Under the pieces are notes generated by a model. The model ran no database searches. It was not told where the DNA came from and saw only the letters and a list, made by a program, of their open reading frames with translations. From contig JARGFH010000027.1 in the NCBI GenBank assembly GCA_029210695.1, positions 1 to 48,768 of the forward strand: DNA of 48,768 bases, in the 5' to 3' direction. This document shows, in pieces, positions 3,405 through 19,710 of this stretch; position 1 is the stretch's first letter, and each line of letters begins with the position of its first letter. Source of the stretch: Acidimicrobiia bacterium. GTDB lineage: Bacteria > Actinomycetota > Acidimicrobiia > Spongiisociales > JAHEDJ01. The position numbers and the translations under genes were made by a program.

Positions 3405-3531
3405 CCGGTCCGGGGGGTCCCAAGGGCCGCCCGGGATACGTGTTTCAGCCCGACCGGCGCTGCTTTGCCGCCTGGGCGACCCGCTCTCCGTAGTCGGGGT
3501 CTGCTGCGCCGGTCCTACACTGTCCCTCTCC

Positions 3532-4566
3532 ATGACTGCAGCACCGTTCTCCTGGCCCGATACGCTCGGTCGAATCACCGCCGGCGAAGACCTCGACCGA
3601 GTGACAGCCCATGCGGCAATGTCCGAGGTCATGCACGGTCGAGCAACTCAGGCCCAGATCAGTGCCTTCATCGTCTCGCTACGAATGAAGGGGGAATCTG
3701 CGGAGGAGATGACCGGGTTTGTCGAGGCGATGCGCGAAGTAGCCGTCACAGTGGATGTGGGCGTTCCGGTGGTCGACACCGTCGGGACGGGAGGTGATCG
3801 ATCGGGCACTTTCAATATCTCGACAACAGCCGGTCTGATTGCGGCCGGAGCGGGAGTTTCCGTTGCCAAGCACGGCAATCGTTCTTCGTCGTCGCAGTGT
3901 GGTTCTGCCGACGTTCTCGAGGCTCTCGGAGTCCAGATCGATCTCGACCCCGAAGCCACGGCCACGCTGGTTCGCGAGGAGCGCTTCGGCTTCTTCTTTG
4001 CTCCGCTCTATCACCCCTCCATGCGCCATGCCGGTCCGGTTCGTAGGGAACTCGGCATCCCGACCGTATTCAATTTCCTCGGTCCGCTGGCGAATCCGGC
4101 CGGAGCAACACGCCAGGCCGTCGGAGTGTCCGACGCCCGCATGGCCGGGAAAATGATCGGAGTGCTCAACAACCTCGGGTCGGATTACGCGTTCGTGTTC
4201 TACGGCGAAGACGGTCTGGACGAGCTGACCACTACCGGACCTTCATTCATCTACCGGCTGCGAAACGGCGAGATCACCCATGCCGAGTTCACTCCAGAGG
4301 ATTTCGGGGTCCCCCGGGCTAATCCCGCAGATCTACTCGGAGGCGACGCCGACCAAAACGCCAGGATCACCCGCGGAATTCTGGAGGGTGCGCCCGGACC
4401 GGCGCGCGACATCGCCCTAGTGAATGCTGCTCCGGCGATCGTGATCGCAGGCTTCGCGCAGGGTTTTGAAGAGGCGACCGCGGTCGCCGCCCAGTCGATC
4501 GATTCCGGCGCGGCCGTAGGAGTGCTCGATCGGGTGATCCGGCGTAGCCGGGAGTTGAAACGGTGA
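3532..4566 (+). CDS. trpD: Anthranilate phosphoribosyltransferase
   Basis: DTVGTGGD..GTFNIST, AKHGNRS.SS.CGSADVLEALG, TVFNFLGPLANP, DGLDEL. Confidence 0.95.
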   Translation: MTAAPFSWPDTLGRITAGEDLDRVTAHAAMSEVMHGRATQAQISAFIVSLRMKGESAEEMTGFVEAMREVAVTVDVGVPVVDTVGTGGDRSGTFNISTTAGLIAAGAGVSVAKHGNRSSSSQCGSADVLEALGVQIDLDPEATATLVREERFGFFFAPLYHPSMRHAGPVRRELGIPTVFNFLGPLANPAGATRQAVGVSDARMAGKMIGVLNNLGSDYAFVFYGEDGLDELTTTGPSFIYRLRNGEITHAEFTPEDFGVPRANPADLLGGDADQNARITRGILEGAPGPARDIALVNAAPAIVIAGFAQGFEEATAVAAQSIDSGAAVGVLDRVIRRSRELKR

Positions 4567-5102: not shown

Positions 5103-5735
5103 ATGCGCCTACTTGCCGCCCTCTTCGTGGTTCTTGCCCTTGTTCTGGCGGCCTGCGGCGGCGCGGCGACCACGACTACGATCGAGGCGGGCAATGCTCC
5201 CGCTCCCACCGATCCGGGTTCGACCGTCGCCGGCCCCGATGACTCCGTGACTCCCGACGATGGTGATGCTTCTACCCCGGCTGACACCGAAGCACCCCCT
5301 CCGATCGCTACCGACTTCGACGGCCCCGTTGCAGCAGATTTCACGATCGACCTCAATAAGACGGGAACCTTCACGCTGAGTGATGAGGCCCGTCCGGTGT
5401 ACCTCGTGTTCTGGGCTGAGTGGTGATCGACCTGTCGACGGGAGTTGCCCGTCGTTGATGCGATTGCCAAGGAATACGGGGACGACATCGCCTTTGTGGC
5501 CATTGCCTGGAAAGGTACCTACGAAGACACCGCGGCGCAGGCCGCCAATCTCATGCAGTCCGGCATGATGGATTGGGCGCTGGACGACGACGCTGAGATC
5601 TTCAGCCTGTACGGGGTGCCGTATCAGCCGGTCTCGTTCCTGATCACCGGTGACGACAAGGTTTTCGACACGTGGCCGGGAGTTCGAGACGAAGCGGCCA
5701 TCCGCCGGGCGCTGGATTCGCTGCTCGATCTCTGA
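5103..5735 (+). CDS. Thioredoxin-fold (TlpA/ResA-like) lipoprotein, predicted selenoprotein with a UxxC active site
   Basis: ORFs 5103-5426 and 5445-5735 are in one frame separated only by TGA 5424-5426, reading VYLVFWAEW-U-STC-RRELP. Lipobox LAAC, cis-Pro loop YGVPYQP and a SECIS-like hairpin right after the TGA. Confidence 0.88.
5426..5459 (+). promoter_or_regulatory. Putative bacterial SECIS element
   Basis: Perfect stem CGACGGG(5436-5442)/CCCGTCG(5448-5454) with loop AGTTG that starts after a 16-nt spacer from the UGA. Possible lower stem ATCGA/TTGAT. Confidence 0.75.
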
Positions 5736-5745
5736 GCGGCTTGAA

Positions 5746-5770
5746 GTTCTAGGTTTTGGGTTCTAGGTTC
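5746..5770. repeat. Heptamer (GGTTCTA-like) short tandem repeat
   Basis: GTTCTAGGTTTTGGGTTCTAGGTTC is 24/25 identical to the reverse complement of 31448-31472. Confidence 0.75.
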
Positions 5771-5804
5771 TACCGCGCCTGGCGGCTGTGGCTAGGTTCA
5801 CGAC

Positions 5805-6332
5805 ATGAATCCCTCTCAGCACACTTCTCTGGATCCACTTCCGGAAGAGCAATGGGATCCGCGACTCGATTCCGTTTTGGATCGGCTTGGGACCGTTCTC
5901 AACGTGCATCGGGTCATGGCCCGTCACCCTGATCTCATGGAAGCCTGGACCCCGCTCCGGCAGCACATCGCCACGGCAGGGTCGCTCGCCCCTCGCCATC
6001 GAGAGCTGGTGATCCTTAGGATTGCGCACCGTTTCGGCGTTGAGTATGAGTGGCACCATCACGTCGCCAGGGGGCGGGTAGTCGGCCTGAGTGACGAAGA
6101 GATCGAAGCCGTTCGACTCGGCCCGGGCGGCGAATGGAGCGACGACGACGCAACGCTCCTCGGCGCCGTGGACGAACTCCTCGACTCGCACTCTCTCTCT
6201 GATGCGAGTCGGACGTCCCTTGAAACGGAGTTCTCTGTGGAGCAGATACTCGACCTCATTGTCACGATCGGGATGTACGTCACGCTGGCGATGCTCATCA
6301 ACACGGCCGGGATCGAGATAGAGGACAACTAG
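5805..6332 (+). CDS. Carboxymuconolactone decarboxylase/AhpD-like family protein
   Basis: MARHPDL, L.PRHRELVILRIA, EYEWHHH, GLSDEEI and AVDEL motifs. Confidence 0.85.
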   Translation: MNPSQHTSLDPLPEEQWDPRLDSVLDRLGTVLNVHRVMARHPDLMEAWTPLRQHIATAGSLAPRHRELVILRIAHRFGVEYEWHHHVARGRVVGLSDEEIEAVRLGPGGEWSDDDATLLGAVDELLDSHSLSDASRTSLETEFSVEQILDLIVTIGMYVTLAMLINTAGIEIEDN

Positions 6333-6355
6333 CACTCGGGAGTCCCACTCAAACC

Positions 6356-6376
6356 TATACTGCAAGTGACTTGCAA
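6356..6376 (+). promoter_or_regulatory. Nur box overlapping a candidate -10 element of nikMN-Q-O
   Basis: cTGCAA-GTGAC-TTGCAA (6360-6376; perfect 7-1-7 palindrome TGCAAGT-G-ACTTGCA) fits the Streptomyces Nur consensus tTGCaa-N5-ttGCAA. TATACT lies at 6356-6361. Confidence 0.75.
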
Positions 6377-6391
6377 TAAGGTTGGTCCGAC

Positions 6392-7381
6392 ATGCACATT
6401 CCCGATGGGTTTATCAACGGTGTGACGTCGCTGGGGGCCGGTGTCGTTGCAGTGTCGGGACTGGGGGCCAGCCTTCGCCGGGCCGGGAAGGAGCTTCAGG
6501 ATCGTCAGATCCCCCTGGCCGGGCTCATTGCGGCCTTTGTTTTCGTTCTCCAGATGCTCAACTTCCCCGTCGTCGCCGGGATGAGCGGACACCTCCTTGG
6601 AGGTGCGCTGGCGGCCATTCTCATCGGTCCCTGGATGGGGATGGTCGTCGTGTCGGTGGTCGTGATCGTTCAGGCGTTGCTGTTTGCAGATGGAGGGATT
6701 TCGGCGCTCGGGCTCAACATCGTCAACATGGGGCTTCTGACGGTGCTGAGCGGCTGGCTGGCGTACCGGTTACTCATGGCGGTGCTGCCGAAGAAGGCAG
6801 GCTCAGTTCTTCTGGCGGGGTCGTTGGCGGCATGGTTCTCAGTGGTGGTCTCCTCTCTTGGATTCGTGGGGGAGTACGCAATTGGCGGCGCTGGGGGCGC
6901 TCCGTTGTCGACGGTGCTGGCGGCGATGTCGGGGACCCATTCGCTCATCGGGATTGGTGAGGGCTTGATCACCGCCGGCGTGCTCGGCTCGGTCCTGGCA
7001 GTCCGGCCCGATCTCGTGCACGGAGCGCGGCTCTTCGGTATCCGGCACGCCGAAAACGCCGAGCTGAGCCGGCGGGCGGTCGGCGCCTTCATCGCAGGGG
7101 GAGTAGCCGTGGCGATCCTTCTGGTGACCGTGGTTGCGCCACGGGCTTCCAGCGATCCAGATGGTCTGGAACGAGTGGCCATCGATCAGGGATTTGCGGA
7201 AACAGCCACAGAACAACCGCTCGGTGACACGCCGCTTTCGGAGTACAGGCTGGTCGGCGTCGAAGATGAGCAGCTCGGCACCGTCGTAGCCGGGCTCATC
7301 GGCCTTGGGGTCACGTTCGTTGCCGGTGTCGGTCTCGTTCTGCTGGCGAGGCGAAGCCGGGGTCGTGTCGATAGCCGATGA
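6392..7381 (+). CDS. nikMN: Ni/Co ECF transporter substrate component NikMN (CbiM family fused to a PDGLE domain)
   Basis: N-terminal MHIPDG metal-binding motif, QMLNFP, SGHLLGG, QALLFADGG and C-terminal PDGLE. Confidence 0.9.
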   Translation: MHIPDGFINGVTSLGAGVVAVSGLGASLRRAGKELQDRQIPLAGLIAAFVFVLQMLNFPVVAGMSGHLLGGALAAILIGPWMGMVVVSVVVIVQALLFADGGISALGLNIVNMGLLTVLSGWLAYRLLMAVLPKKAGSVLLAGSLAAWFSVVVSSLGFVGEYAIGGAGGAPLSTVLAAMSGTHSLIGIGEGLITAGVLGSVLAVRPDLVHGARLFGIRHAENAELSRRAVGAFIAGGVAVAILLVTVVAPRASSDPDGLERVAIDQGFAETATEQPLGDTPLSEYRLVGVEDEQLGTVVAGLIGLGVTFVAGVGLVLLARRSRGRVDSR

Positions 7382-8139
7382 GCGGGACGCACACCCACGC
7401 GCTCTTCGTTCATGGGCACAGTCACCTGCACCGACTTCCTGCCTCGACCAAACTCGGTGCACTCGGTCTCTTTGTGCTGGCCGTCGTCGTTACACCGCGG
7501 GAGGCGTTCTGGGCGTTCGGCGTTCATGCCGGGTTGATCCTGAGCGCCATGTGGTTGGCAGGGTTGAAACCTAGATTCGTGGCAAAACGCCTGGTCATAG
7601 AGGTCCCATTCGTGCTGTTTGCCGTGTTTCTCCCCTTTGTCGGCGGAGGCGACCAGTTGGACATCATGGGACTGTCGCTGTCCATCGAGGGCCTTTGGGC
7701 AGGCTGGAACATCGTTGCCAAGGGAACTCTCGGCCTGGCTGCATCCATCGTGTTGACCGCCACCACGACGGTCCCCGACCTCCTTTCCGGTCTCGAGCGG
7801 CTCCGGGTACCCCGGCTCATCACCTCGATCGCCGGGTTCATGGTGCGATACCTCGATGTCATCGCAGGGGAGATGCACCGGATGCGGCTGGCAATGCTGT
7901 CGCGCGGCCACGACCCGCGCTGGATCTGGCAAGCGAGGGCGTATGCGACCTCGGCCGGTGCCTTGTTCATTCGTTCGTATGAGCGAGGCGAGCGGGTCTA
8001 CTACGCGATGACCGCCCGTGGGTTCGCCGGTCAAATTCCTACTTTCGACACCGAGCGTGCCACCGGGACCGACTGGCTGGGTGCCCTCCTCCTGCCTGCC
8101 GTCGCCTGGACTGCAACCCTGGTGGCGTTGTTCGCATGA
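7378..8139 (+). CDS. nikQ: ECF transporter T component (CbiQ/NikQ)
   Basis: His-rich N-terminus, FMVRYL, LFIRSYERGERVYYAM.ARGF. Confidence 0.92.
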   Translation: MSGTHTHALFVHGHSHLHRLPASTKLGALGLFVLAVVVTPREAFWAFGVHAGLILSAMWLAGLKPRFVAKRLVIEVPFVLFAVFLPFVGGGDQLDIMGLSLSIEGLWAGWNIVAKGTLGLAASIVLTATTTVPDLLSGLERLRVPRLITSIAGFMVRYLDVIAGEMHRMRLAMLSRGHDPRWIWQARAYATSAGALFIRSYERGERVYYAMTARGFAGQIPTFDTERATGTDWLGALLLPAVAWTATLVALFA

Positions 8140-8879
8140 GTGTCCCTGCGCTCGAAGTCGTCGACCTCAACTACCACTATCCAGATGGGACCGAGGTGCT
8201 CCGCAGTGTCGGGTTCCACATCCATCCGGGGGAGCGGGTTGCGTTGCTCGGCCCCAACGGAGCGGGCAAGACAACCCTGGTCTTTCATCTGAACGGCATC
8301 TTCCGGCCAGACTCAGGATCCGTGACGGTGGCCGGTTTGCCCCTCGATGACGAGCACGTCAAGGAAGTCAGGAGACGGGTCGGTATCGTCTTCCAGGACC
8401 CCGACGACCAACTCTTCATGCCGACCGTTCGCCAGGATGTCGCCTTCGGTCCGGCGAACTACGGAGTTGAAGGGGAGGAATTGCAGACCAGGGTGAATGA
8501 TGCTCTCTCGGCAGTCGGAATGCTCGACGTGGCAGGTCGACCGCCTCATCATCTCAGCGTCGGTCAACGCCGTCGGGTGGCGGTTGCGACGGTGCTGGCC
8601 ATGCAGCCGGAGATCGTGGTGCTGGACGAACCATCTTCGAATCTCGATCCCGCCTCCCGGCGAGAGCTCGCCAACATCCTCACCTCGCTGGACATCACCA
8701 TGCTGATGGTGACGCACGACCTGCCCTACGCACTCGAGTTGTGCCCGCGCTCCCTGGTCATGAACGATGGCAGGATCATCGCGGACGGGTCGACCCGTCA
8801 GATCCTCTCCAACCGGGAGCTGATGAAGGCAAACCGACTCGAGCTTCCTCTCGGTTTCGACCCGAATTTCGCTCTCTGA
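8136..8879 (+). CDS. nikO: ECF transporter ATPase (CbiO/NikO)
   Basis: [41 protein letters not shown]. Confidence 0.93.
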
Positions 8880-9601: not shown

Positions 9602-10504
9602 ATGGCTCCCGTCGTCGAAGTCGATCACCTGTCGAAGAGCTACGGCAGCTTTGTTGCGATCGAGGATGTCAGTTTCTCCGTTGAAGAAGGTGAGATCTTC
9701 GGGATTCTCGGACCGAACGGAGCCGGGAAGACGACCACGGTTGAGTGCCTTCAGGGGCTTCGGAAGGCCGACGGTGGTGTGGTACGGGTTCTGGGTCACG
9801 ACCCCCGGCACGAAGCATCACAGCTGCGGAGAAGGATTGGTTCGCAACTCCAGGAGTCGGCACTTCCCGACCGGATGAAGGTTTGGGAAGCGCTCGATTT
9901 GTTCTCGTCGCTCATTCCCCACGGACCGCCCTGGGAGGCGGTTCTGGAGCAATGGGACCTGTCGGAGAAGCGCGACGCGAAGTTCGGGAGTCTGTCGGGA
10001 GGCCAGCAGCAGCGCCTGTTCATAGCCTTGGCAGTGGTCAACGCTCCAGAGCTGGTGTTTCTGGATGAGATGACGACCGGCCTCGATCCAACCTCGCGTC
10101 GAGCGACCTGGGACCTCATCCGGCAGATCCGCGAGAACGGTTCGACCGTTGTACTCGTCACCCATTTCATGGACGAAGCTGAGAACCTATGTGATCGAAT
10201 CGCCGTCGTAGACGACAAGCGCGTCGTAGCGTTGAACACTCCCGAGGGGCTCATCCAGGACTTTGCGGGCGATTCAGAGGTCACGTTCTCCACGGATGTC
10301 GATGATCTGAGCTACCTCTTGCGTTTGGAGGAGGTCGACCGAGTCGAAAAAAAAGGTCGACGGGCTACCGTCACCGGGAAGGGGGCGCTGCTGGCGAGGG
10401 TCGCCGCCGAGCTGGTCGGGAATGGGATTGTTCCGCCGGATCTCGAGGTCAAGCGAGCGAGCCTCGAGGATGTGTTCCTCACGATCACGGGCCAGGAACG
10501 CTGA
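9602..10504 (+). CDS. ABC exporter ATP-binding protein (DrrA-like)
   Basis: [36 protein letters not shown]. Confidence 0.93.
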   Translation: MAPVVEVDHLSKSYGSFVAIEDVSFSVEEGEIFGILGPNGAGKTTTVECLQGLRKADGGVVRVLGHDPRHEASQLRRRIGSQLQESALPDRMKVWEALDLFSSLIPHGPPWEAVLEQWDLSEKRDAKFGSLSGGQQQRLFIALAVVNAPELVFLDEMTTGLDPTSRRATWDLIRQIRENGSTVVLVTHFMDEAENLCDRIAVVDDKRVVALNTPEGLIQDFAGDSEVTFSTDVDDLSYLLRLEEVDRVEKKGRRATVTGKGALLARVAAELVGNGIVPPDLEVKRASLEDVFLTITGQER

Positions 10505-10505
10505 C

Positions 10506-11255
10506 GTGCAGACCCTGGTGAGAATGTCGTGGGTGGAGCTCAAGTTGTTCCTGCGCGAACCGTTGACGGTGATGTTCTCTCTTGCTTTGCCGCTGATCAT
10601 CCTCTTTGTTCTCGGTGGAGTTTTCGGTAATGAGCCTTCTCAACCAGGAGAACAGCTCGTGTACCGGGGGGTCGGAGCGATTACCTATTACGTTCCCGCC
10701 TATCTAGCGCTTGTCGTTGCCTCAGTATGCGTAATCAGTATTCCCACTCACCTCGCCGGCAACAGGGAGCGGGGAGTCCTCAAACGATTCCATGCCTCCT
10801 CGGTCGGTGCCGCGGCCGTGGCAGGTGCCGAGCTGGCGGTGGCGTTCGTTGTTTCGGCGATCAGCGGTGTCCTGCTGCTCATTGCGGCGCAACTCGCCTA
10901 CGACTTCGACCCTCCCGATTCGATACCGGGGGTTGTCGGCGTGTTCGCGCTGCTGGTAATCGGCTTTGCCACATTCGGCATATTCCTGGGGGCAGTTCTC
11001 CCGACCGCCCGGGCTGCACAGGCCGTCGGCATGCTGGTCTGGTTCGTCATGCTGTTTCTTGGGGGAGCGGGGCCTCCGCCGGAAGTCCTCACCGATGCAA
11101 TGCGAACGGTCTCCGATTTCACTCCGCTTTGGCACGCCGTCAGGATGATGCACGATGTATGGCTGGGTCTGGATGCCGGCCTTGCATGGGCGATCTTCGG
11201 TGGGATCGCCGTGGTGAGTGCCGGGCTCGGCCTGCGGTTCTTCCGTTGGGAGTGA
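10506..11255 (+). CDS. ABC-2 type exporter permease
   Basis: ELKLFLREP, RERGVLKR, six hydrophobic segments, FFRWE end. Confidence 0.9.
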   Translation: MQTLVRMSWVELKLFLREPLTVMFSLALPLIILFVLGGVFGNEPSQPGEQLVYRGVGAITYYVPAYLALVVASVCVISIPTHLAGNRERGVLKRFHASSVGAAAVAGAELAVAFVVSAISGVLLLIAAQLAYDFDPPDSIPGVVGVFALLVIGFATFGIFLGAVLPTARAAQAVGMLVWFVMLFLGGAGPPPEVLTDAMRTVSDFTPLWHAVRMMHDVWLGLDAGLAWAIFGGIAVVSAGLGLRFFRWE

Positions 11256-11302
11256 CACTGCAAGCACGGTGTTTCACCATCCGGCCAATTGGATCGAATC
11301 CG

Positions 11303-12433
11303 CTACTCGTCTCCCGACAATTCCGTGAGGATCTCGTTGGTGTGCTGGCCGAGTGTCGGTGCCGGCCGTTTCGAGTTACCGGCTCTGAGTGGCCCCTGGA
11401 CGACGCGATACTTGCCGTCCGACGTTTCGACCTCACCCACCATCCCGGTCTCCTTGACGTAGGGCATGGCGATTGCCTGGAGCACGGTATTGAGCGGTCC
11501 GTGGGGCACCCCGGAGACGCTCAGGCGCGCTAGCGCCTCTTCCGTCGAAAAGCGTGCCACGGCCGCCTCAACCGCTGCGTCTACCTCCTCCCGGGCGTCG
11601 GTGCGCTGCGGGTTCGTGCGGAAGCGGTCGTCTCCGGCGAGATGCTCGAGACCGATCGCATTGCAGAGGAGCGGCCAGAATTTGTCGCCGATGACCGCGA
11701 TGACGACCCAGCCGTCGCGCGTGGCAAACGCGCGGTACGGCACGATGTTGTGGTGTCCGGATCCGACCGGTGCAGGATCAACTCCTGTTCCCATGGCCGA
11801 CGTTGCCATGTAGGCCAGGAACGACATGGCCGAATCGAGTAGTGGGACCTCGACGTGGCGTCCCCGGCCGTCGCGCAGGCGCCCGGCATAGGCGGCGACT
11901 CCGCCGAGTGCCGCCCATAATCCGGCCGCCAGGTCGCTGATCGCTACGCCGGCCCGGACCGGTGCTCCACCTTCTTCGCCGGTGATGGACATGATGCCGC
12001 TCTCAGCCTGGGCGATGAGATCGAGTGATCCATCGGCGGCGCGGGAACTGTTTCTGGCATATCCCGAGATTGTCACGATTACGAGGCGTGGGTGGCGAGT
12101 CAGCAGGAGGTCGGGTTCGAGACCGAGTTTCTTGACTGCCGCAGGCCGGTAGTTCTCGAGCAAGATGTCGGCCGTCTCCAGTAGGGCATGGAGAGCCTCG
12201 GTTCCGGCTTCCGTGGTCAAGTCGAGCACGATGCCGCGCTTGCCGGTGTTGAGCGACGAGAAGTAGAGCGATCGGCCGTCGACGAACGGGCCGATACCAC
12301 GGGCCATGTCACCTTCGGGAGGTTCGACCTTGATCACGTCGGCGCCCATCTCGGCGAGCACCTGGCCTGCGTATGGTCCGGCCAGGACCCTGGTCAGATC
12401 GATGACCCTGACCCCGTCGAGCAAGCCGCTCAC
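11303..12433 (-). CDS. Class III CoA-transferase (CaiB/BaiF)
   Basis: LDGVRVIDLTRVLAGPY, GADVIKVEPP.GD..R, LN.GKR, ENYRP, DL.AQAESG. Confidence 0.93.
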   Translation of the reverse strand: MSGLLDGVRVIDLTRVLAGPYAGQVLAEMGADVIKVEPPEGDMARGIGPFVDGRSLYFSSLNTGKRGIVLDLTTEAGTEALHALLETADILLENYRPAAVKKLGLEPDLLLTRHPRLVIVTISGYARNSSRAADGSLDLIAQAESGIMSITGEEGGAPVRAGVAISDLAAGLWAALGGVAAYAGRLRDGRGRHVEVPLLDSAMSFLAYMATSAMGTGVDPAPVGSGHHNIVPYRAFATRDGWVVIAVIGDKFWPLLCNAIGLEHLAGDDRFRTNPQRTDAREEVDAAVEAAVARFSTEEALARLSVSGVPHGPLNTVLQAIAMPYVKETGMVGEVETSDGKYRVVQGPLRAGNSKRPAPTLGQHTNEILTELSGDE

Positions 12434-13572
12434 TCGCCCACCACCAACCGGAGGACTTCAGTGGCGGGGAGACGAGGATCATCGAGGATTCCAATGAGAC
12501 GATCGCCGGACAGCGACCGCAGCTTCCAATCCAGTTGCTCGACCGTCATCGGGTGAAGTGGCGATCCGAGTGCGGCGTCGATTTCAATCGAGTCGGAATC
12601 CCACTTCAGAACGGCAGACGACTCAGGCAGTTGCTCGTCGAGTTCCACCCTGATCCGGGTGGCGAGCGTGCGGGCGGCCTCGTCCACTCCGGCGAATGCC
12701 CTCACGTCCGGCGGGCCGTACAACCACCCGAAGGCGGTCGTGTAGGGAATGGAGAACTTGGCCTCCAGGCCTGTGGCGACGTCATCGAGGGGGGCAGCCT
12801 GCCGCGACCGGGGATGAACCACCACCGTGATCGAACCGGCTGAGTTGGCGTCTTGGGAGGCAGACGCCCGGATCGCTGCCTCGATCGCCGCGTGGGTCTG
12901 CAGGCAACACGGAAAGGCCTTGATCCAGTTCTCCTCGATGGCTGGATCATCAGGATCCGGTTCGGCCCATCGGGCGCCGTAGGCGGATTCATACCCGTCG
13001 CGAACGGCTTCGCTCGTGGTGGCGCCGTTGGCGGCGAACCCCGCCGCCTGAACACCCTGGGAGGCGGCCATTCCCACCTGGAGGCTCTTGCCGTCGGTGC
13101 CGAACGCAGTGCGTAGCCCTCCGGCGCCGAGCACGGCCAGGAGTTGGGCATTGGTCGTTTTTTCCGCGTCGAGGCCGAGAAGATGGGCGGCGGCCGTGGC
13201 CGCGCCGACTGTTCCTGTGATCGCGGTCGGGTGCCAGCCGCGCTCATACAGCATCGGGTGGCCGGCCCTGGCAAGTGCGGCCATTGCTTCGAAACCGGCG
13301 GCATAGGCGGCCAGCATCGAACCGACCGAGCTTCCGATATGCGCTCCGAGCACTAGTGCGGCAGGAGCGACCGGTGCACTGAGGTGGGAGAGTCCCGGGG
13401 CGTACGTGTCGTCGTAGTCGAGGACATGTCCCGCCACGCCCAGCCGGATCGTCCGCTCGAGTAGGGAGTCGTCGATCGGGGCCACCGCGTGGACGGCCGG
13501 TTCGTGTCGGCCGGCGAACGCGCACGCCATCCAGTCGAGGAACGCCTGCCGGTATCCGGGATGGTCGGTCAT
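12430..13572 (-). CDS. MmgE/PrpD family protein (possible isomerase/epimerase)
   Basis: GHVLDYDD, H.SAPV.PAAL, GWHPT, K.LQVG, KAFPCC..THAAIEA, EAKFSIPY. Confidence 0.88.
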   Translation of the reverse strand: MTDHPGYRQAFLDWMACAFAGRHEPAVHAVAPIDDSLLERTIRLGVAGHVLDYDDTYAPGLSHLSAPVAPAALVLGAHIGSSVGSMLAAYAAGFEAMAALARAGHPMLYERGWHPTAITGTVGAATAAAHLLGLDAEKTTNAQLLAVLGAGGLRTAFGTDGKSLQVGMAASQGVQAAGFAANGATTSEAVRDGYESAYGARWAEPDPDDPAIEENWIKAFPCCLQTHAAIEAAIRASASQDANSAGSITVVVHPRSRQAAPLDDVATGLEAKFSIPYTTAFGWLYGPPDVRAFAGVDEAARTLATRIRVELDEQLPESSAVLKWDSDSIEIDAALGSPLHPMTVEQLDWKLRSLSGDRLIGILDDPRLPATEVLRLVVGE

Positions 13573-15194
13573 TTGTTCCTCGCGGCGGTCTCGAGCAGGC
13601 CCTTGCCGATCACCCGCAGTGCCAGAACCTCTTCGGTGCCCTCGAAGATCGACAACACCCGTGCGTCCACGAAGAGCCTGCTGATCGGGTACTCCTCGGC
13701 GTAACCGTACCCGCCGTGGAGTTGCATGGCGTCACGAGTGATCTCCTCAGCAGCCCGGGAGGCCAGCGCCTTGGCCATGGCTGCTTCGATCTGGCCCTCG
13801 CCTTCTGAGAGCAGCCTGGCCGCCTGGTAGGTGAACTGCCGGTTGGCCTGGATGCGGGCAGCCATCCGGGCGAGAGTATTGGCGGTCAGCTCGAATTCGA
13901 GAAGGGGGCGGCCGAAGACCCGTCGGGTTCTGCAATAGGCGAGCGCCTCATCGAAGGCGGCCTGCATTACTCCCAGCGCCCGGGCGGCCGTCTGAAGGCG
14001 TCCGGAGGCAAAGGCCCCCATCTGCAGGTAGAAGCCCCTTCCCAGCCCCGGCTCTCCGCCGATGAGCGCATCGAACGGCACCAGGTAGTCATCGAAAGTC
14101 AACTCGAAGCTGTGGAGTCCCCGATAGCCGATCGTGTCGATCGCCCGACCCCGCAGGGAGCCGCCGCCCGGTTGTTCGATGGCGAACTCGTGTCCGGCGA
14201 ACGGAGGTTTCTCGACTACGAACAGCGAGAGGCCCCTGGCTCCAGCGGATGAATCTGGATTGGTTCTGGCCAGAAGCATCAGCAGTTCGGCGCGGCCGGC
14301 GAAGGTCGCCCACATCTTGGCCCCATTGAGGACGAACTGATCGCCGTCCGGCCGGGCGGACATTCGCAAGGAGGCGACGTCGGAGCCGATATCCGGCTCG
14401 GTGACCGACACCGCCACCATCTGGGTTCCGGCGGCAATCCGCGGTAGCCAGGTCATCTTCTGCCCGTCGGTCCCACCTTCGAGCAGCGCAGATACCAGGA
14501 TCTCGGGCCTGGTGAGCAGCGACCCTGCCATCAGCGATCCCCGGGAGAGTTCTTCGGTGGCCACAGCCATCGAGAGCAGCCCGGGTGCGTCCGGAACCTG
14601 AAAGCCCCCGTGGTCGGTGGGAATCGACATGCCGAACGCGCCCATTGCCGCCATGCCATTGATCAACTCCTCAGGTACGTCGAGATTGTGGCGGTGCACG
14701 CCTTCGGCGTGGGGAGCCACTTGTTCACGCGTGAATCGTTTGAAGGTCTCGGCCACCAGGGCAATGTCCTCGTCGAGGTGTTGGGGTCCGGTATTCGATT
14801 CCTCAAAGGAGGCGTTGAGCTTTCCGATGACGCCGGGATCAGATCCGGCCACGAGCACACGGTCGCATGGCTCGCCGCGCAGGTCATCGTCGATCCCGAG
14901 GTCCATGCGTCGCCCGTCGACCCTCGCCCGGGCCGAGCGAAGCAGATCGGCCACTGCGATACGCCCGATCTCTAACTCGGACTCTCCGTATTCGGAGTAG
15001 TCGATCATCACTCTGCTCATCGCGGTCTCGGCCGCCAGGAAGGCGAGGTGGTAAACGGCTTCCTGATGTTGATCCAGCATCTCCGTCGAGATCCTGCCGT
15101 CGCGACGCGTCACCGAGGCAAGGTGAGCGGCCGCTGAGTCGACCAGGTCCTGCATCCGTTCGACGGTCCGGCGGGCGTCCTCCTGCCAGCTCAT
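13569..15194 (-). CDS. mcd: Acyl-CoA dehydrogenase resembling (2S)-methylsuccinyl-CoA dehydrogenase
   Basis: 541 aa with an N-terminal extension; TEELSRGSL.AGSL.TRPEI, TEPD.GSDVASL, IGYRG..S.EL.FD, GRLQTAARA, DARVLSIFEG.EE; gene context. Confidence 0.72.
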   Translation of the reverse strand: MSWQEDARRTVERMQDLVDSAAAHLASVTRRDGRISTEMLDQHQEAVYHLAFLAAETAMSRVMIDYSEYGESELEIGRIAVADLLRSARARVDGRRMDLGIDDDLRGEPCDRVLVAGSDPGVIGKLNASFEESNTGPQHLDEDIALVAETFKRFTREQVAPHAEGVHRHNLDVPEELINGMAAMGAFGMSIPTDHGGFQVPDAPGLLSMAVATEELSRGSLMAGSLLTRPEILVSALLEGGTDGQKMTWLPRIAAGTQMVAVSVTEPDIGSDVASLRMSARPDGDQFVLNGAKMWATFAGRAELLMLLARTNPDSSAGARGLSLFVVEKPPFAGHEFAIEQPGGGSLRGRAIDTIGYRGLHSFELTFDDYLVPFDALIGGEPGLGRGFYLQMGAFASGRLQTAARALGVMQAAFDEALAYCRTRRVFGRPLLEFELTANTLARMAARIQANRQFTYQAARLLSEGEGQIEAAMAKALASRAAEEITRDAMQLHGGYGYAEEYPISRLFVDARVLSIFEGTEEVLALRVIGKGLLETAARNK

Positions 15195-16084
15195 TCGGCG
15201 GTGTCCGTGCGGGACTTGTCCAACACCCGGCGAGCCAGTCGTACGACCGCTTCGTCAACCATGTGTCCTTCGTCATCGGTGACGGCCCCCCGACCTTCGG
15301 CGAGTGCCGCGTCGTACAAAGCAACCAGCTTGCGGGCTCTAGCCACGGCACCCGGTGTAACGCCGAAGACCTCGTTGTAAACGGGAACCTGGACGGGGTG
15401 GATGGCGGGCCGGCTCCCGAAGCCGAGGGAGGCAAGCTCCTGTGCCTCGTTTCGCAGTGTTTCCAGGTTCGTGAAGTTGGGGGAAACCGGGCCGAGCGGC
15501 GCCTCCAGCCCCAGTGCCGCGGAAGCGACCACAACCTGCATGCGAAGCGGCAGCAACGCCGCCGAATTGGCGGGGTCGATGCCGAGTTCGGCGCTCAAAT
15601 CGAGTTCGCCGATCATCAACTGACTGACCCTCCGGGCGGCACCGAGCTCGCCGACTCCGAGCATCCCCGCCGCCGTCTCAATGATGGGCAGCAGCCGGAT
15701 CGAGCCAGCGGGCAGCCCCTTGGCGATTTCAGCGTCATCAAGGAGATTGGCGGCGTGTTCGAGTTCCGTGCGAGTGGAAACCTTGGGGATCATCACACCG
15801 GTCACACGGGCGTTGGGCACCGCCAGGATCTCCGCCCCGAATGAATCGCCCGGGTGATTGAGACGAACCCAGATATCCGGGACGGGACCGGCGAGGCCGG
15901 CCAGCCAGGAGCTAACCGTTTCTCGTGCCTGTTGCTTCGCCGACGGCGCCACCGCATCCTCGAGATCGATTATCAACGCGTCGGCGCCACGTTTGGTGGC
16001 CTTGGCGAGCATGTCGGGCCGATCACCCGGGACGAACAGGAAGCTTCGAGCTGCCACGATTCGGGGTCCCTCTCCTTCGTTCAT
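15191..16084 (-). CDS. CitE-like CoA-ester lyase (malyl-/citramalyl-CoA lyase family)
   Basis: RSFLFVPGDRP.ML.KA, ADALIIDLEDAVAP..K, IPKV, IIETAAG, LGF..R.AIHP.QV, G.MVD.AV. Confidence 0.9.
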   Translation of the reverse strand: MNEGEGPRIVAARSFLFVPGDRPDMLAKATKRGADALIIDLEDAVAPSAKQQARETVSSWLAGLAGPVPDIWVRLNHPGDSFGAEILAVPNARVTGVMIPKVSTRTELEHAANLLDDAEIAKGLPAGSIRLLPIIETAAGMLGVGELGAARRVSQLMIGELDLSAELGIDPANSAALLPLRMQVVVASAALGLEAPLGPVSPNFTNLETLRNEAQELASLGFGSRPAIHPVQVPVYNEVFGVTPGAVARARKLVALYDAALAEGRGAVTDDEGHMVDEAVVRLARRVLDKSRTDTAE

Positions 16085-16172
16085 TTCGATGTGCCTTCTT
16101 TGTAGCACCTCGAGATCAGGCCGGTCGAGCTGCCCTCGATACAATCCACCACAGTCCGGGAGAGGAGCGTCG

Positions 16173-17387
16173 GTGGACTCAGGTCTATTGAGCGGCATGC
16201 GAGTCGTTGAAGGGGCGGCCTTTGTGGCCGGGCCGCTCGGCGGTATGACCCTTGCTCAGTTGGGAGCCGACGTCATTCGATTCGACCCGATCGGCGGAGG
16301 GCTCGACTACCGACGCTGGCCGGTCACCGCAGATGGCAACAGCCTGTACTGGGCAGGGCTCAACAAAGGCAAGCGGTCGATAGCCCTTGATCTCCGGTCG
16401 GAAGAAGGCCGGGAGCTGGCCGTGGCCCTCATCACTGCACCGGGTCCGGACGCCGGGATCTTTTTGACCAACTATCCGGCGGGTGGCTGGATCGACTACG
16501 AACACCTGGTGACGCTCCGTCCTGATCTCATCATGTGCCACATTCTCGGCAATTCCGATGGGTCCACCGCGGTCGACTACACGGTCAACGCCGCGGTTGG
16601 TTACCCGGCGATCACGGGACCACAGGAGTTGGACGGGGTGGTCAACTCAGTCCTTCCTGCCTGGGATCTCATCACGGGAACGACCGCGACTACCGGGATC
16701 CTGGCGGCAGAGCGGCACCGTTATCGCACAGGAGAAGGCCGACTGTTGAAGCTCCCGCTATTCGACGTTGCCCTGGCAACAATCGGTCATCTTGGCCAAA
16801 TTGGTGAGGTTCAGGTGAACGGCGAGGATCGTGCGAGGTACGGCAACTACCTATTCGGCGCCTTCGGCCGTGACTTCGTGACCGCCGACGGCCGTCGGGT
16901 GATGGTGGTGGCGATCACCCCCAGACAGTTCCTCGGCATGATCGAAGCGGCCGGCCTCGAGACGGAGATGGCAGCGATCGAAGCGGATCTGGGTCTTGAA
17001 CTGAGGAGCGATGGAGATCTCTTCACTGCAAGAGAGGCCATCGCCGGAATCCTCGAGGTCTGGATAGCGACGCAATCTCTGGCCGAGCTGGCCGCGATAT
17101 TCGACGCTCACCGGGTGCTGTGGGGCCCATATCAGACGATGCGGGAGCTACTCGAGAACGACTCCCGTGCGTCGACCGACAATCCAATGCTCCACGAGGT
17201 TGACCAACCTGGTATCGGTCAATACCTGATGCCGGGATCCCCCATCGACACCGGCCCCGATCGCTTGCCTCCCCAGCCGGCTCCGCGGCTCGGGCAGCAC
17301 ACCGATGAGATCTTGAGTGAAATCCTCGAGCTGAGCGGGTCGGAGATTGGACGACTCCACGACACGAAGGTGGTGGCAAGTGCCTGA
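16173..17387 (+). CDS. mct: Mesaconyl-CoA C1-C4 CoA transferase (2-methylfumaryl-CoA isomerase)
   Basis: VVEG.AFVA.PLGGMTLAQLGADVIRFDPIGGGLDY.RWP, SL.WAGLNKGKRS, AVDYTVN and RYGNYLFGAFGRDF closely match Chloroflexus Mct as I recall it; SD AGAGGAG. Confidence 0.88.
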   Translation: MDSGLLSGMRVVEGAAFVAGPLGGMTLAQLGADVIRFDPIGGGLDYRRWPVTADGNSLYWAGLNKGKRSIALDLRSEEGRELAVALITAPGPDAGIFLTNYPAGGWIDYEHLVTLRPDLIMCHILGNSDGSTAVDYTVNAAVGYPAITGPQELDGVVNSVLPAWDLITGTTATTGILAAERHRYRTGEGRLLKLPLFDVALATIGHLGQIGEVQVNGEDRARYGNYLFGAFGRDFVTADGRRVMVVAITPRQFLGMIEAAGLETEMAAIEADLGLELRSDGDLFTAREAIAGILEVWIATQSLAELAAIFDAHRVLWGPYQTMRELLENDSRASTDNPMLHEVDQPGIGQYLMPGSPIDTGPDRLPPQPAPRLGQHTDEILSEILELSGSEIGRLHDTKVVASA

Positions 17388-18216
17388 ACTCGACGATTGG
17401 ATCGGCCGGAGTGAGGTGAAGGAGGATCTCATCACTGCCTGGCCGGTTGAGGCGCTGCGGGCAACCTTCGATCTTCCCGACCAGCCGTTGGTTCCGGGTG
17501 ATCCCATTCCGCCGATGTGGCACTGGTTGTTCTTCCTTTCGACGACCCGGCGGTCAGAGTTGGGTCCCGATGGTCACGCGGAGCGCGGTGGGTTTCTCCC
17601 GCCCGTCGAACTGCCGCGCAGGATGTTCGCAGGGGGTCGCACCGAGTTTCTGGCACCTCTGCGAATCGGTCAAACGGCTCGCCGGACCGGCACGATTACC
17701 GGCATCCAGACGAAGGAAGGGCGCAGCGGTCGCCTGGTGTTCGTCACCGCCCGCTTCGAGGTGGTGACGGATGACGGCCCGGCCATCGTTGAGGAGCAGG
17801 ATCTGGTCTACCGAGAAGCCGCCACAGGGAGCCAGGCTCCTGCCCCGGGAGTTGATCCGATTCCCGATGCGGCCTGGATGCAAACCATCTCGCCAGACCC
17901 CACCATGTTGTTCAGGTTTTCGGCGCTCACGTTCAATGGTCATCGCATCCACTACGACGATCCATACGTGACCGAGTTCGAGGGGTATCCGGGTTTGATC
18001 GTGCACGGGCCGATGACTGCCCTGTGGCTGCTCGGTCTCAGCGTTGCCAACGACCATCGACCGATATCCCGCTTCTCCTTCCGTGGACGGTCGCCGCTGT
18101 TCTGCGACGGCCCTGTGAGTCTGCGCGGTGGCCTCACCAAAGACGGAGCCGCCGAGCTGGCTGCATGGTCCCACGACAACCGCCTGGCTATGACCGCCGA
18201 AGTGGAGTTCGGGTAG
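17380..18216 (+). CDS. meh: Mesaconyl-C4-CoA/itaconyl-CoA hydratase (double hot-dog fold)
   Basis: WIGR, PP.WHWLFF, LGPDGH..RGGFLPPV.LPRRMFAGG, LFRFSALTFNGHRIHYD, EGYPGL.VHGP. Confidence 0.88.
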   Translation: MPELDDWIGRSEVKEDLITAWPVEALRATFDLPDQPLVPGDPIPPMWHWLFFLSTTRRSELGPDGHAERGGFLPPVELPRRMFAGGRTEFLAPLRIGQTARRTGTITGIQTKEGRSGRLVFVTARFEVVTDDGPAIVEEQDLVYREAATGSQAPAPGVDPIPDAAWMQTISPDPTMLFRFSALTFNGHRIHYDDPYVTEFEGYPGLIVHGPMTALWLLGLSVANDHRPISRFSFRGRSPLFCDGPVSLRGGLTKDGAAELAAWSHDNRLAMTAEVEFG

Positions 18217-18278
18217 CAGGAAAGGAGGGTCTGGGTTGGTGGCTCTGAGTAGCGGCAGAGCCTGACCGGAGCGTGGGG

Positions 18279-18309
18279 GCCAATTGCCAATTGCCAATTG
18301 CCAATTGCC
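18279..18309. repeat. (GCCAATT)4 heptamer tandem repeat
   Basis: Four exact intergenic copies immediately upstream of the -10-like TAGAGT of the hydrolase gene. Confidence 0.85.
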
Positions 18310-18327
18310 CATTCCTAGAGTCTCCTG

Positions 18328-19710
18328 GTGCGTTCTCTCGAGATAGTCCTTGCGGTTCTCGCGCTCGCTGCGGCCGTACTCCCGCGGCGCTGGACGGGCG
18401 CACGTATCGCCGCCGCGCTGGCGCTGTTACCCGTCGCGGCCGTTCACCTCACCACCGAAGGCTGGCGGTGGCAGATGGTGCCGCTCTACCTGGTCGGATC
18501 GCTCCTGTTCGCAGTCGCTGCCTGGGAGATGTTGAGTCCGGCCACGGAATCTCCAGAGTCATCCGGGCTGGCCCGGTCGCTCGGCGTGATTGGCCTTGCC
18601 GCGGTCGTTGCGCTGCCGGCGGTGGTGCCGGTTTGGGAGTTGCCGCAACCGACGGGGAAGTACGGGATCGGGACCGTCGAGACCGTGATCACGGACACCG
18701 GTCGCCGGGACCCATACGACCCTGAGGGTCGAGCGCGGCGACTCATGCTCCAGGTCTGGTACCCGGCTGATCCGGCCCGCGACGCCGATCCGGAGCCGTG
18801 GTTGGAGCAGTCGGACATCGTTGGGCCGGCCATCGCCGAGACCTTCGGGTTCCCGTCGTTTGCCCTCGGCCATAGCGCCTTGATCGACTCACACGGCTAT
18901 TCGCAGGCTGCCATTGCCGGAACGGATGAGTTTCCCGTCGTCATCTACTCACACGGATGGAAGGGGTTGCGGGCGGCCGGTCTCGACCAGATCGAGGACC
19001 TGGTCAGTCACGGGTTCATCGTCGTGGCGCCGGACCATACTTACGGGGCGGCCGCCACTGCGTTTCCCGACGGAGAATTGGTGACCTACGAACCTTCTGC
19101 CCTTCCCGAGTTCGGAACGGTCCCCGACGAGGAGTACGACGAAGCTGCCCTAATACTGGTGGCCACTTTCGCGGCAGACCTGGGTTTCGTCATGGATGAA
19201 CTCGAACGACTCAACGGTGACCCCGCCTGGCTGCTATCCGGTCGGATGGATCTGGACCGGATCGGGTTGTTCGGTCATTCCACGGGTGGGGGAGCCGTCG
19301 TCGCGATCTGCGCGGTCGATGAGCGATGCGACGCGGCGGTCGGGTTCGATCCGTGGGTGGAGCCGGTACCGGCGCAGATACTCGAGGACGGCTTCGATGT
19401 CCCGTTCCTGGCCATCAGGAGTGAAGAGTGGCTCGGCTACGACAACGACCCGGTGTTGCAGCGGTTTGCCCTGCGATCGTCAAAGACGGACCTGCTCGGA
19501 TTGATGGGGGCCGGACACCAGGATTTCAGCGTGCTTCCTCGCTTCAGCGCCGTTTCCGTCGTGCTCGACCTGAAGGGCTCGATTGATTCTGATCGAGCCG
19601 CCGAAATCGTCAACACGTATCTGGTGAAGTTCTTTGAGGCAGAATTGAACGGAGGGCCGGACGTGCCGTCCGACCCCCTGTTCGAGGAAGTGTGCATCGG
19701 TCCCTGTTGA
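18328..19710 (+). CDS. Membrane-anchored alpha/beta hydrolase (PAF-acetylhydrolase-like)
   Basis: Four N-terminal TM segments, GWRWQM.PLY, LP.PTG.Y.IG, QVWYPA, YSHG, nucleophile GHSTGG, GHQDFS. Confidence 0.88.
   Translation: MRSLEIVLAVLALAAAVLPRRWTGARIAAALALLPVAAVHLTTEGWRWQMVPLYLVGSLLFAVAAWEMLSPATESPESSGLARSLGVIGLAAVVALPAVVPVWELPQPTGKYGIGTVETVITDTGRRDPYDPEGRARRLMLQVWYPADPARDADPEPWLEQSDIVGPAIAETFGFPSFALGHSALIDSHGYSQAAIAGTDEFPVVIYSHGWKGLRAAGLDQIEDLVSHGFIVVAPDHTYGAAATAFPDGELVTYEPSALPEFGTVPDEEYDEAALILVATFAADLGFVMDELERLNGDPAWLLSGRMDLDRIGLFGHSTGGGAVVAICAVDERCDAAVGFDPWVEPVPAQILEDGFDVPFLAIRSEEWLGYDNDPVLQRFALRSSKTDLLGLMGAGHQDFSVLPRFSAVSVVLDLKGSIDSDRAAEIVNTYLVKFFEAELNGGPDVPSDPLFEEVCIGPC

Follow-up and report, generated by a model that had tools for sequence, protein, structure and literature searches.

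The five-gene itaconate cluster of pseudomonads (ich, mcd, mmgE/msi, ict and ccl; P. aeruginosa PA0878-PA0883 and Cupriavidus necator) has been characterised by Gonner et al. 2025 (PMC12290011). The acyl-coenzyme A (CoA) dehydrogenase (ACAD) of that cluster was described as an (RS)-methylsuccinyl-C4-CoA dehydrogenase yielding mesaconyl-C4-CoA and its MmgE/PrpD protein as an (S)-(R)-methylsuccinate isomerase, and 96% of the isomerases counted by these authors came from Pseudomonadota (PMC12290011). Here a cluster of six genes at positions 11303-18216 of a 48,768-nt stretch of an Acidimicrobiia contig (JARGFH010000027.1; the whole stretch is referred to as the window) was compared with that system and its relatives, after the 43 open reading frames (ORFs) of the window had been scanned with family profiles (Pfam, NCBIfam). 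The cluster apparently encodes a version of the known itaconate/methylsuccinate pathway in which the dehydrogenase is non-orthologous, being of the methylsuccinyl-CoA dehydrogenase (Mcd) type, and a CoA-shift step is added, assigned to a homologue of the CoA-transferase Mct; this form is widespread and apparently undescribed. Judged from sequence comparisons, the cluster would fairly probably serve the catabolism of branched C5-dicarboxylates to acetyl-CoA and pyruvate via a C1-to-C4 shift of CoA. The main substrate is probably methylsuccinate, and mesaconate and itaconate are likely substrates as well. Among the readings offered in an earlier note on this DNA, this one is the best supported, by the protein families, the active-site residues, the dehydrogenase tree and the gene neighbourhood.

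Pseudomonad-type references were taken from plasmid records found by a hydratase query. Burkholderia sp. JSH-S8 (L087) carries ich, an ACAD gene (acd), ict, mmgE/prpD and ccl, and Ralstonia solanacearum (L086) carries ict, ccl, ich and acd; the earlier note had held that the pseudomonad cluster lacks Mct, and this is so in both. Four families of the window cluster match those of the pseudomonad cluster, with which it is also predicted to share all five functional roles and the end products, and the window MmgE/PrpD protein keeps the catalytic residues of the isomerase. The window cluster differs in its dehydrogenase (541 aa, with an N-terminal extension and an arginine triad, whereas the pseudomonad-type enzymes have 387-390 aa and neither feature), in the addition of Mct, in an MmgE/PrpD protein that is about 80 aa shorter, and in its actinobacterial host. 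Neither the term 'C1-C4' nor the term 'intramolecular' was found in Gonner et al. 2025 (PMC12290011).

An adjacent pair of mct and hydratase genes is shared with the 3-hydroxypropionate bi-cycle of Chloroflexus and Roseiflexus, which occurs in part in heterotrophs (PMC9813914, PMC9196870, PMC6593406). Mesaconyl-C1-CoA is formed in the bi-cycle from beta-methylmalyl-CoA via Mch, whereas its likely source in the window is the Mcd-type dehydrogenase, and no mch, mcl, mcr or pcs gene was found in the 48.8-kb window. The gene context likewise sets this dehydrogenase apart from Mcd of the ethylmalonyl-CoA pathway, being catabolic and including Mct. A synthetic methylsuccinate module based on Ccr (bioRxiv 10.64898/2026.01.16.699985) also places Mct, Meh and Ccl downstream of mesaconyl-C1-CoA; the engineers drew their enzymes from different organisms, whereas here the genes stand together naturally and are joined to the activation of free acids instead of a carboxylation. 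In anaerobic naphthalene degradation an intramolecular CoA-transferase (ThnP) and an ACAD (ThnO) similarly set the thioester of a dicarboxyl-CoA at the end where it is needed (PMC11659651). ThnP differs in belonging to CoA-transferase family I and in its substrate, and transfer precedes the dehydrogenase there while it would follow it here. Two candidate precedents were set aside, namely the Binatota papers, in which mct, meh and mcd are only legend entries of separate pathways, and the Kentron paper, which deals with a partial bi-cycle without Mcd. Text searches of the literature, which took in few subscription journals and no supplements, found no description of a natural Mcd-Mct or Mcd-Mct-Meh-Ccl cluster.

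The Mcd-type dehydrogenase and the Mct homologue

The dehydrogenase is encoded by the second minus-strand gene of the cluster (13569..15194; 541 aa). Its best structure match was PDB 8ciw (P. migulae Mcd; 460.5 bits over residues 6-539), followed by PDB 6es9 (Paracoccus Mcd; 303.6 bits), while ordinary ACAD structures matched the core only, at 242 bits or less. The ACAD domains begin at residue 143 (Pfam), leaving an N-terminal extension of about 140 aa. The protein was aligned with the alignment anchored on the Paracoccus denitrificans gene (L088), all eleven reference residues of which fell on the expected letters. The arginine triad of the Paracoccus denitrificans enzyme (PdMCD), R252, R376 and R421, corresponded to R229, R358 and R405 of the window dehydrogenase, its catalytic E535 to E518, and its S248, T418 and Y375 were kept as S225, T402 and Y357. 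The N-terminal extension, the arginine triad, the catalytic glutamate and the overall architecture are common to the window enzyme, PdMCD (6es9; PMC5798300) and P. migulae Mcd (8ciw; PMC10266731). None of these PdMCD residues was present in the aligned pseudomonad-type dehydrogenases of L086 and L087. Those enzymes, 387-390 aa in length, were 30% identical to the window dehydrogenase and no closer to it than an unrelated ACAD encoded at 2217-3404 of the window (28%).

A maximum-likelihood tree of the dehydrogenases was built from 20 rows, row L059 having been dropped beforehand. The 15 N-extended proteins clustered together (support 85/77) and were split into two subclades. The window dehydrogenase fell with plasmid proteins resembling 8ciw in one, the 8ciw-like subclade (support 100/99), and PdMCD in the other, and the pseudomonad-type dehydrogenases were set apart by a branch of length 4.8. 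By alignment and phylogeny, then, the window dehydrogenase is of the ethylmalonyl-CoA-pathway Mcd type, unlike the pseudomonad C4 type; the earlier note had named it Mcd and pointed to such a phylogeny, which bears the name out. Members of the Mcd family yield mesaconyl-C1-CoA (PMC12290011, PMC5798300). From the linkage to Mct or to Mch-type hydratases described below, the window enzyme is proposed to be a methylsuccinyl-C1-CoA dehydrogenase with mesaconyl-C1-CoA as its product.

The first plus-strand gene (16173..17387; 404 aa from GTG 16173) encodes a family III CoA-transferase that matched the structures of Mct from Chloroflexus (PDB 8apq, 532.4 bits) and Roseiflexus (PDB 7xkg, 529.9 bits), the next structure scoring 103 bits. 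Residue roles were taken from the study of Chloroflexus Mct by Pfister et al. (PMC9813914), in which Asp165 is catalytic, Arg47 and Tyr136 bind the carboxylate and Leu43 lies at the cavity mouth; an offset of 21 between the 8apq chain and the native numbers was worked out in this analysis. In the alignment with 8apq, L43, R47, N100, D135, Y136 and D165 were all conserved in the window protein, and Arg104 was replaced by Gly and Phe101 by Tyr. The protein is an Mct homologue whose function is probably that of Mct. It is called a homologue here, and not a certified equivalog, because its score on the NCBIfam model TIGR04253 missed the cut-off. All nine Mct homologues scored on this model (the window protein and those of eight other loci) fell below the cut-off, with 448-584 bits, including one from a Chloroflexota metagenome-assembled genome (564.9 bits).

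Linkage of Mcd and Mct in other genomes and on plasmids

A scan of species genomes with the window Mct returned at least 558 relatives; the best 80 loci were kept, and these were mostly from Acidimicrobiia and Alphaproteobacteria. Neighbouring genes were counted by tblastn, and the counts are lower bounds since many of the loci are short contigs. Greedy ORF calls were antisense or over-long in some high-GC loci (parts of L001) and so were not used for counting. An Mcd-family gene lay within 1.1 kb of Mct in 8 of the 80 loci (L001, L003, L004, L007, L008, L011, L055 and L061), a hydratase homologue directly downstream of Mct in 16, and a window-type lyase together with an MmgE/PrpD gene in three (L001, L004 and L007). 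Mch-like hydratases were found in nine of these loci and a 347-aa Mcl-like lyase in five; the loci that bear them represent the known partial bi-cycle context, a separate one.

The genes of the window cluster recurred at 57-95% amino acid identity, all six in L001 and L007 and five in L004. Because the same genes recur in three other loci, their grouping is not due to chance. L001 (labelled 'Actinomycetes bacterium isolate Ww199') had 82-95% protein identity across the cluster and was syntenic beyond both of its ends; the flanks of L004 and L007 were unlike those of the window. The label of L003 is Acidimicrobiia and that of L004 Acidimicrobiaceae, and the window most likely stems from this lineage; the L003 locus is cut by a contig end. 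L007 (CAXMQV010000018.1) comes from a bin labelled Gammaproteobacteria and contains all six genes in the same order at 57-71% identity, with the compact form of the MmgE/PrpD protein that was otherwise met in contigs labelled Acidimicrobiia; the presence of the cluster in this bin reflects either horizontal transfer or a binning error.

Plasmids were scanned with the window Mcd, with any match in 2124 records and a match to at least 80% of the query in 35. Nine plasmid Mcd loci were compared, and in six of them an Mct homologue (45-57% identity) lay within 2.2 kb of Mcd. The carriers are Paraburkholderia sp. D15 (L081), Variovorax sp. SRS16 (L082), the IncP-1 plasmid pAKD34 (L083), Azospirillum brasilense (L090), Sphingomonas paeninsulae (L091) and Sphingobium herbicidovorans pSHV1 (L093). 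On pAKD34 the dehydrogenase scored 735 bits against 8ciw, and the next gene 484-490 bits against the Mct structures. Near the ethylmalonyl-CoA-pathway Mcd of Paracoccus denitrificans (L088) none of these genes was found.

Mcd and Mct were linked in at least five different gene orders. In the window type the two genes diverge and the lyase gene stands between them; Mcd is followed by Mct in L008, L011 and L081-L083; the order is Mct, Mcd, hydratase in L091 and L093, Mct, hydratase, Mcd in L055, and Mch-like gene, Mct, Mcd in L061. On pSHV1 (L093), Mct, Mcd, hydratase and lyase form one co-directional run, and in Paraburkholderia sp. D15 (L081) hydratase, lyase, electron transfer flavoprotein (ETF) genes, Mcd and Mct lie within about 9 kb. 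The main argument for a functional coupling of Mcd and Mct is that their proximity persists despite these rearrangements, in Actinomycetota, Alpha- and Betaproteobacteria and SAR324. The earlier note had reported the pairing for this locus alone; the pairing is real and is less singular than that implied, since several phyla and the plasmids of some cultured bacteria have it too.

Besides Mct, one other consumer of mesaconyl-C1-CoA is known, namely Mch. In Sphingobium sp. TomTYG74 (L089) the place of Mct beside an 8ciw-like Mcd is taken by a hydratase of the Mch type (Pfam MC_hydratase, 63.8 bits), with a CitE-like lyase, and in L061 a weaker Mch-like hydratase of the MaoC family accompanies Mct. 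These two loci argue that the 8ciw-like subclade makes the C1 ester. The related clusters, often located on plasmids, have genes for transporters, porins and LysR proteins as neighbours, as is typical of catabolic islands.

Several further observations were made on these loci. In L081, genes for ETF alpha and beta and for a member of the acetyl-CoA hydrolase/transferase family were located at 5128-6848 and 11945-13201; the window cluster has neither the electron acceptor nor the family I-type CoA-transferase that they supply. On Variovorax plasmid 3 (L082, 70-13096), Mcd and Mct lie among beta-oxidation genes in a long co-directional run. Encoded in this run are enoyl-CoA hydratases, a 3-hydroxyacyl-CoA dehydrogenase and a thiolase, together with a KAS III-like protein and two FAD-dependent oxidoreductases. 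Mct homologues of 55-58% identity were also found in marine Acidimicrobiales (L012, L014, L018, L021, L024, L025, L029, L041 and similar loci); no Mcd, hydratase or lyase gene was found near Mct in these loci, the recurrent neighbours being a PhyH-type dioxygenase, an epoxide hydrolase, a short-chain dehydrogenase/reductase, an enoyl-CoA hydratase and an RPE65-type oxygenase. They constitute a third context for Mct-like genes. Two plasmid loci matched by MmgE/PrpD, from Cupriavidus campinensis (L084) and a member of the Comamonadaceae (L085), were rejected as they were not itaconate clusters.

The proposed pathway and its alternatives

Four further enzymes complete the proposed route. The third minus-strand gene (12430..13572; 380 aa) encodes the MmgE/PrpD protein (Pfam MmgE_PrpD_N, 111 bits; MmgE_PrpD_C, 57 bits), the closest structure to which was iminodisuccinate (IDS) epimerase (PDB 2hp3, 91 bits). 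Its residues H49, D52, H63, Y109, H114 and K162 correspond to H85, D88, H99, Y145, H150 and K198 of IDS epimerase, and its K218 aligns with a lysine of L087 that matches, by our own count, K266 of P. aeruginosa Msi. With these seven residues present, the His/Tyr two-base site and the carboxylate-binding residues are intact. Two-base His/Tyr machinery of this kind is the proposed means of epimerisation at C2 of a substituted succinate. The spacing between Tyr and His is five residues, as in IDS epimerase, and four in the isomerase of the pseudomonad cluster. The compact form is conserved in L001 and L004 (378 aa) and in L007 (383 aa). The proposed role of the protein is to interconvert the (R) and (S) forms of methylsuccinate before its activation with CoA.

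The fourth minus-strand gene (11303..12433; 376 aa) encodes a family III CoA-transferase (Pfam CoA_transf_3, 384 bits). Every NCBIfam equivalog match to it was below the cut-off; it matched PDB 4ed9 (234 bits), YfdE (226 bits) and SUGCT (221 bits), and it was 36% identical to Ict of the Ralstonia and Burkholderia itaconate clusters. Going by these structure matches it is a generic family III enzyme, and an Ict-like, succinyl-CoA-dependent activation of C5-diacids is proposed as its role. The second plus-strand gene (17380..18216; 278 aa from GTG 17380) encodes a double-hotdog hydratase of the Ich/Meh type, with a full-length match to the 275-aa 'itaconyl-CoA hydratase' PDB 8khg (244.5 bits), a match of 242 bits to PDB 8huc, and 47% identity to Ich of the Burkholderia, Ralstonia and Paraburkholderia clusters. 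It is proposed to hydrate both mesaconyl-C4-CoA and itaconyl-CoA, with (S)-citramalyl-CoA as the product. The gene content given in the earlier note is borne out by these assignments, except that its label 'meh' is to be amended, this being the same hydratase family as the itaconyl-CoA hydratase of Pseudomonas. The product of the first minus-strand gene (15191..16084; 297 aa from ATG 16084) is an HpcH/CitE lyase (Pfam HpcH_HpaI, 122.5 bits; NCBIfam RipC_Ccl, 152.4 bits, below the cut-off of 375) whose best structures were PDB 9nzb and 8khl, both 'acyl-CoA lyase beta chain' (103 bits each). It was 35% identical to Ccl of the Burkholderia itaconate cluster (L087) and is proposed to be a Ccl-like (S)-citramalyl-CoA lyase. 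The hydratase is clearly of the pseudomonad-cluster type, while the lyase and the minus-strand transferase agree with that cluster at the family level only (35-36% identity).

In the proposed pathway the MmgE/PrpD protein would interconvert (R)- and (S)-methylsuccinate as free acids, and the minus-strand family III CoA-transferase would form the CoA ester. The Mcd-type dehydrogenase would oxidise methylsuccinyl-C1-CoA to mesaconyl-C1-CoA, and the Mct homologue would then move CoA intramolecularly to give mesaconyl-C4-CoA, as Mct is described to do (PMC9813914). The Ich/Meh hydratase would convert this ester, and itaconyl-CoA too, to (S)-citramalyl-CoA, which the CitE-type lyase would cleave; Ich/Meh and Ccl are reported to act in this manner on mesaconyl-C4-CoA and (S)-citramalyl-CoA (PMC12290011). 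A C1-type Mcd would thus replace the C4-specific dehydrogenase of pseudomonads, with Mct repairing the resulting regiochemistry. The presence of a CoA-transferase and a free-acid isomerase points to the uptake of external acids.

Several observations weigh against this pathway. The regiochemistry of the 8ciw-like subclade is its weakest link. In the methyl pocket, A285 and F287 of PdMCD are replaced by V262 and V264 in the window dehydrogenase, and E380, which fixes R376 in PdMCD according to the residue roles given by Schwander et al. (PMC5798300), is replaced by S362. In RsMcd the exchange A282V raised the activity on succinyl-CoA, and bulkier residues inactivated the enzyme (PMC5798300). 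Given these pocket changes and the effect of A282V, the substrate range may differ from that of PdMCD. The MmgE/PrpD protein is only 27% identical to its counterpart in the Burkholderia itaconate cluster (L087), and at about 80 aa below the typical length it gives a Pfam N-domain match that begins at profile position 77. The Mct homologue scored 551.8 bits on TIGR04253, for which the equivalog cut-off is 725. No ETF gene was found among the 43 ORFs of the window, and no ETF gene, diacid transporter or regulator in the cluster. The L004 cluster has no hydratase gene, and in L003 none was found in the 10 kb downstream of Mct. The nine plasmid loci were taken from the top of the match list and are a non-random choice. 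Lastly, the context in L082 suggests that some Mcd-Mct members have other substrates, in L082 itself a different, larger dicarboxylate.

The PdMCD form of the pocket, then, is lost in the window dehydrogenase; P. migulae Mcd (PmMcd, 8ciw) departs from it too and is active on methylsuccinyl-CoA (McLean et al., PMC10266731). The 8ciw-like proteobacterial rows of the alignment carry Ile at both of the positions of A285 and F287, and in PmMcd I275 sits at the position of RsMcd A282 (PMC10266731). The kinetics of PmMcd were given for 'methylsuccinyl-CoA' without regiochemistry in the available text (PMC10266731), and bulkier pocket residues might exclude a methyl group at C2. The pseudomonad route could therefore run unchanged, with the dehydrogenase making mesaconyl-C4-CoA directly and Mct rescuing misactivated esters or using C1-activated mesaconate; Novosphingobium sp. 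ES2-1 (L092), where Mcd is followed by a hydratase with no Mct nearby, would agree with this. We regard it as decidedly improbable, as the window dehydrogenase shares only the general ACAD fold with the proven C4-specific dehydrogenases, and the tight, rearranged linkage to Mct or an Mch-type hydratase is hard to explain without mesaconyl-C1-CoA as the product.

The same pocket bears on the substrate. PmMcd, of the same subclade, is unusually active on succinyl-CoA (PMC10266731), and together with the residues V262 and V264, which make the pocket unlike that of PdMCD, this would suit the same chemistry acting on another substituted succinate or dicarboxylate, with Mct shifting CoA on a different unsaturated dicarboxyl-CoA. 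Such a substrate is unlikely for the window cluster. The two enzymes that accompany its Mcd-Mct pair, a CitE-type lyase and a hydratase of the Ich/Meh type, are those specific for the citramalyl-CoA route, and its Mct homologue conserves R47 and Y136, the binders of the mesaconate carboxylate. Thiolase, enoyl-CoA hydratase and 3-hydroxyacyl-CoA dehydrogenase genes surround the Mcd-Mct pairs of L082 and of Sphingomonas L091, whereas the window cluster is not flanked by beta-oxidation genes. Gonner et al. noted that the isomerase site could fit larger C3-substituted substrates (PMC12290011), and the ThnP and ThnO pair of naphthalene degradation offers an unrelated instance of an intramolecular CoA-transferase with an ACAD (PMC11659651).

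The earlier note had also entertained a carboxylating variant of the ethylmalonyl-CoA pathway. With ccr, ecm and epi elsewhere in the genome, crotonyl-CoA would be reductively carboxylated and led via methylsuccinyl-CoA through Mcd, Mct, Meh and Ccl to acetyl-CoA and pyruvate, in what would be nature's equivalent of the synthetic Ccr-based module. This found no support in the window, where no ccr, ecm, epi, mch or mcl gene was present among the 43 ORFs, and we consider it very unlikely. Mcd, Mct, Meh and Ccl have been combined downstream of Ccr, Ecm and Epi in synthetic biology (bioRxiv 10.64898/2026.01.16.699985), which makes the variant sound as chemistry, and a CbiMQO-type cobalt transporter encoded 2.4 kb away is a weak hint at B12 use. 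Nevertheless, a route made up of CoA esters throughout would have no need of a CoA-transferase or a free-acid isomerase, and the related clusters lie in surroundings of the catabolic-island type, often plasmid-borne. If true, this variant would be a net carboxylating route from acetyl-CoA to pyruvate, so far only an engineered design.

Should the proposed catabolic pathway hold, Mct would gain a physiological role outside CO2 fixation. A modest form of this claim, in which a catabolic function of Mct alongside Mcd is widespread and may be the source from which the bi-cycle recruited it, is on balance slightly favoured, and it is much likelier than the carboxylating hybrid. Several metagenome surveys name 2-methylfumaryl-CoA isomerase in the context of carbon fixation; many carriers of the Mct relatives found in the genome scan are probably heterotrophs, so that the presence of mct alone would over-call autotrophy. 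Gonner et al. described methylsuccinyl-C1-CoA as a dead end and argued that methylsuccinate is important in soils and guts (PMC12290011). The Mcd-Mct cluster would be a way out of that dead end and a second, non-orthologous means of methylsuccinate breakdown. A native function is also suggested for the 8ciw-like Mcd enzymes, which are already in use in synthetic biology (PMC10266731), and engineered pathways could draw on sets of Mcd, Mct, Meh and Ccl that have co-evolved in nature. Sphingobium herbicidovorans MH, Paraburkholderia sp. D15 and Azospirillum brasilense are cultured carriers, which makes the idea directly testable.

Gene starts, intergenic region and surroundings

The ORF listing and family scans gave four minus-strand genes and two divergent plus-strand genes at 11303-18216, in the order and orientation claimed in the earlier note, the end coordinates of which coincide exactly with the ORF ends. 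All three junctions between the minus-strand genes are overlaps of 4 nt, and the start of the hydratase gene overlaps the stop of Mct by 8 nt; these overlaps point to an operon organisation. The longest ORFs were not accepted as gene starts in three cases. For the lyase, position 16198 was dropped since homology begins at residue 50, which makes ATG 16084 likely. For Mct, position 15858 was dropped since homology begins at residue 108, and GTG 16173, preceded by GGAGAGGAG, was taken as the likely start. For the hydratase, position 17347 was dropped in favour of GTG 17380, which is likelier by the limits of homology and the sequence context.

The lyase and Mct starts are separated by an intergenic region of 88 bp (16085..16172), which was aligned with the corresponding regions of L001, L004 and L007. 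Two boxes, TTTGTA at 16099-16104 (TACAAA on the minus strand) and TACAAT at 16140-16145, were conserved in L001 and L004 and may be the -10 elements of divergent promoters. A sigma-70-like promoter scan of 11000-18600 gave no sites, no inverted repeat was found in 16040-16230, and terminator-like sites numbered two, below the mean of 3.4 for shuffled sequence.

The G+C content was 62-67% across the whole window, and the cluster showed no compositional break. Transporters, two-component systems, genes of histidine and tryptophan biosynthesis and a molybdopterin oxidoreductase make up the surroundings. Directly after the hydratase gene, a 460-aa alpha/beta-hydrolase is encoded on the plus strand (18328-19710; Pfam PAF-AH_p_II, 86 bits), with weaker dienelactone hydrolase and PETase-like matches; L001 shares this neighbour, which L004 and L007 lack. 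The enzyme may supply the pathway as an esterase or lactonase, or may have nothing to do with it. On the other side, an ABC-2 type exporter pair on the plus strand (9602-11255; a DrrA-subfamily ATPase, 234 bits, and a permease) adjoins the CoA-transferase gene, in L001 as well, and has no evident link to diacid uptake. The cobalt transporter is a CbiM(N)-CbiQ-CbiO cobalt/nickel transporter of the energy-coupling factor type (6392-8879, plus strand). Cobalt supply would matter for B12-dependent mutases, and no mutase was found in the window. Housekeeping genes (hisI/E, an aminotransferase gene, hisD, hisG and trpD) were located at 42210-48322 on the minus strand and 3331-4566 on the plus strand, and their presence indicates that the window is chromosomal and not part of a mobile element. 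Several of the long housekeeping ORFs extend N-terminally beyond their Pfam matches, hisIE with 400 aa being an example, which suggests that the longest-ORF starts of these genes are too early.

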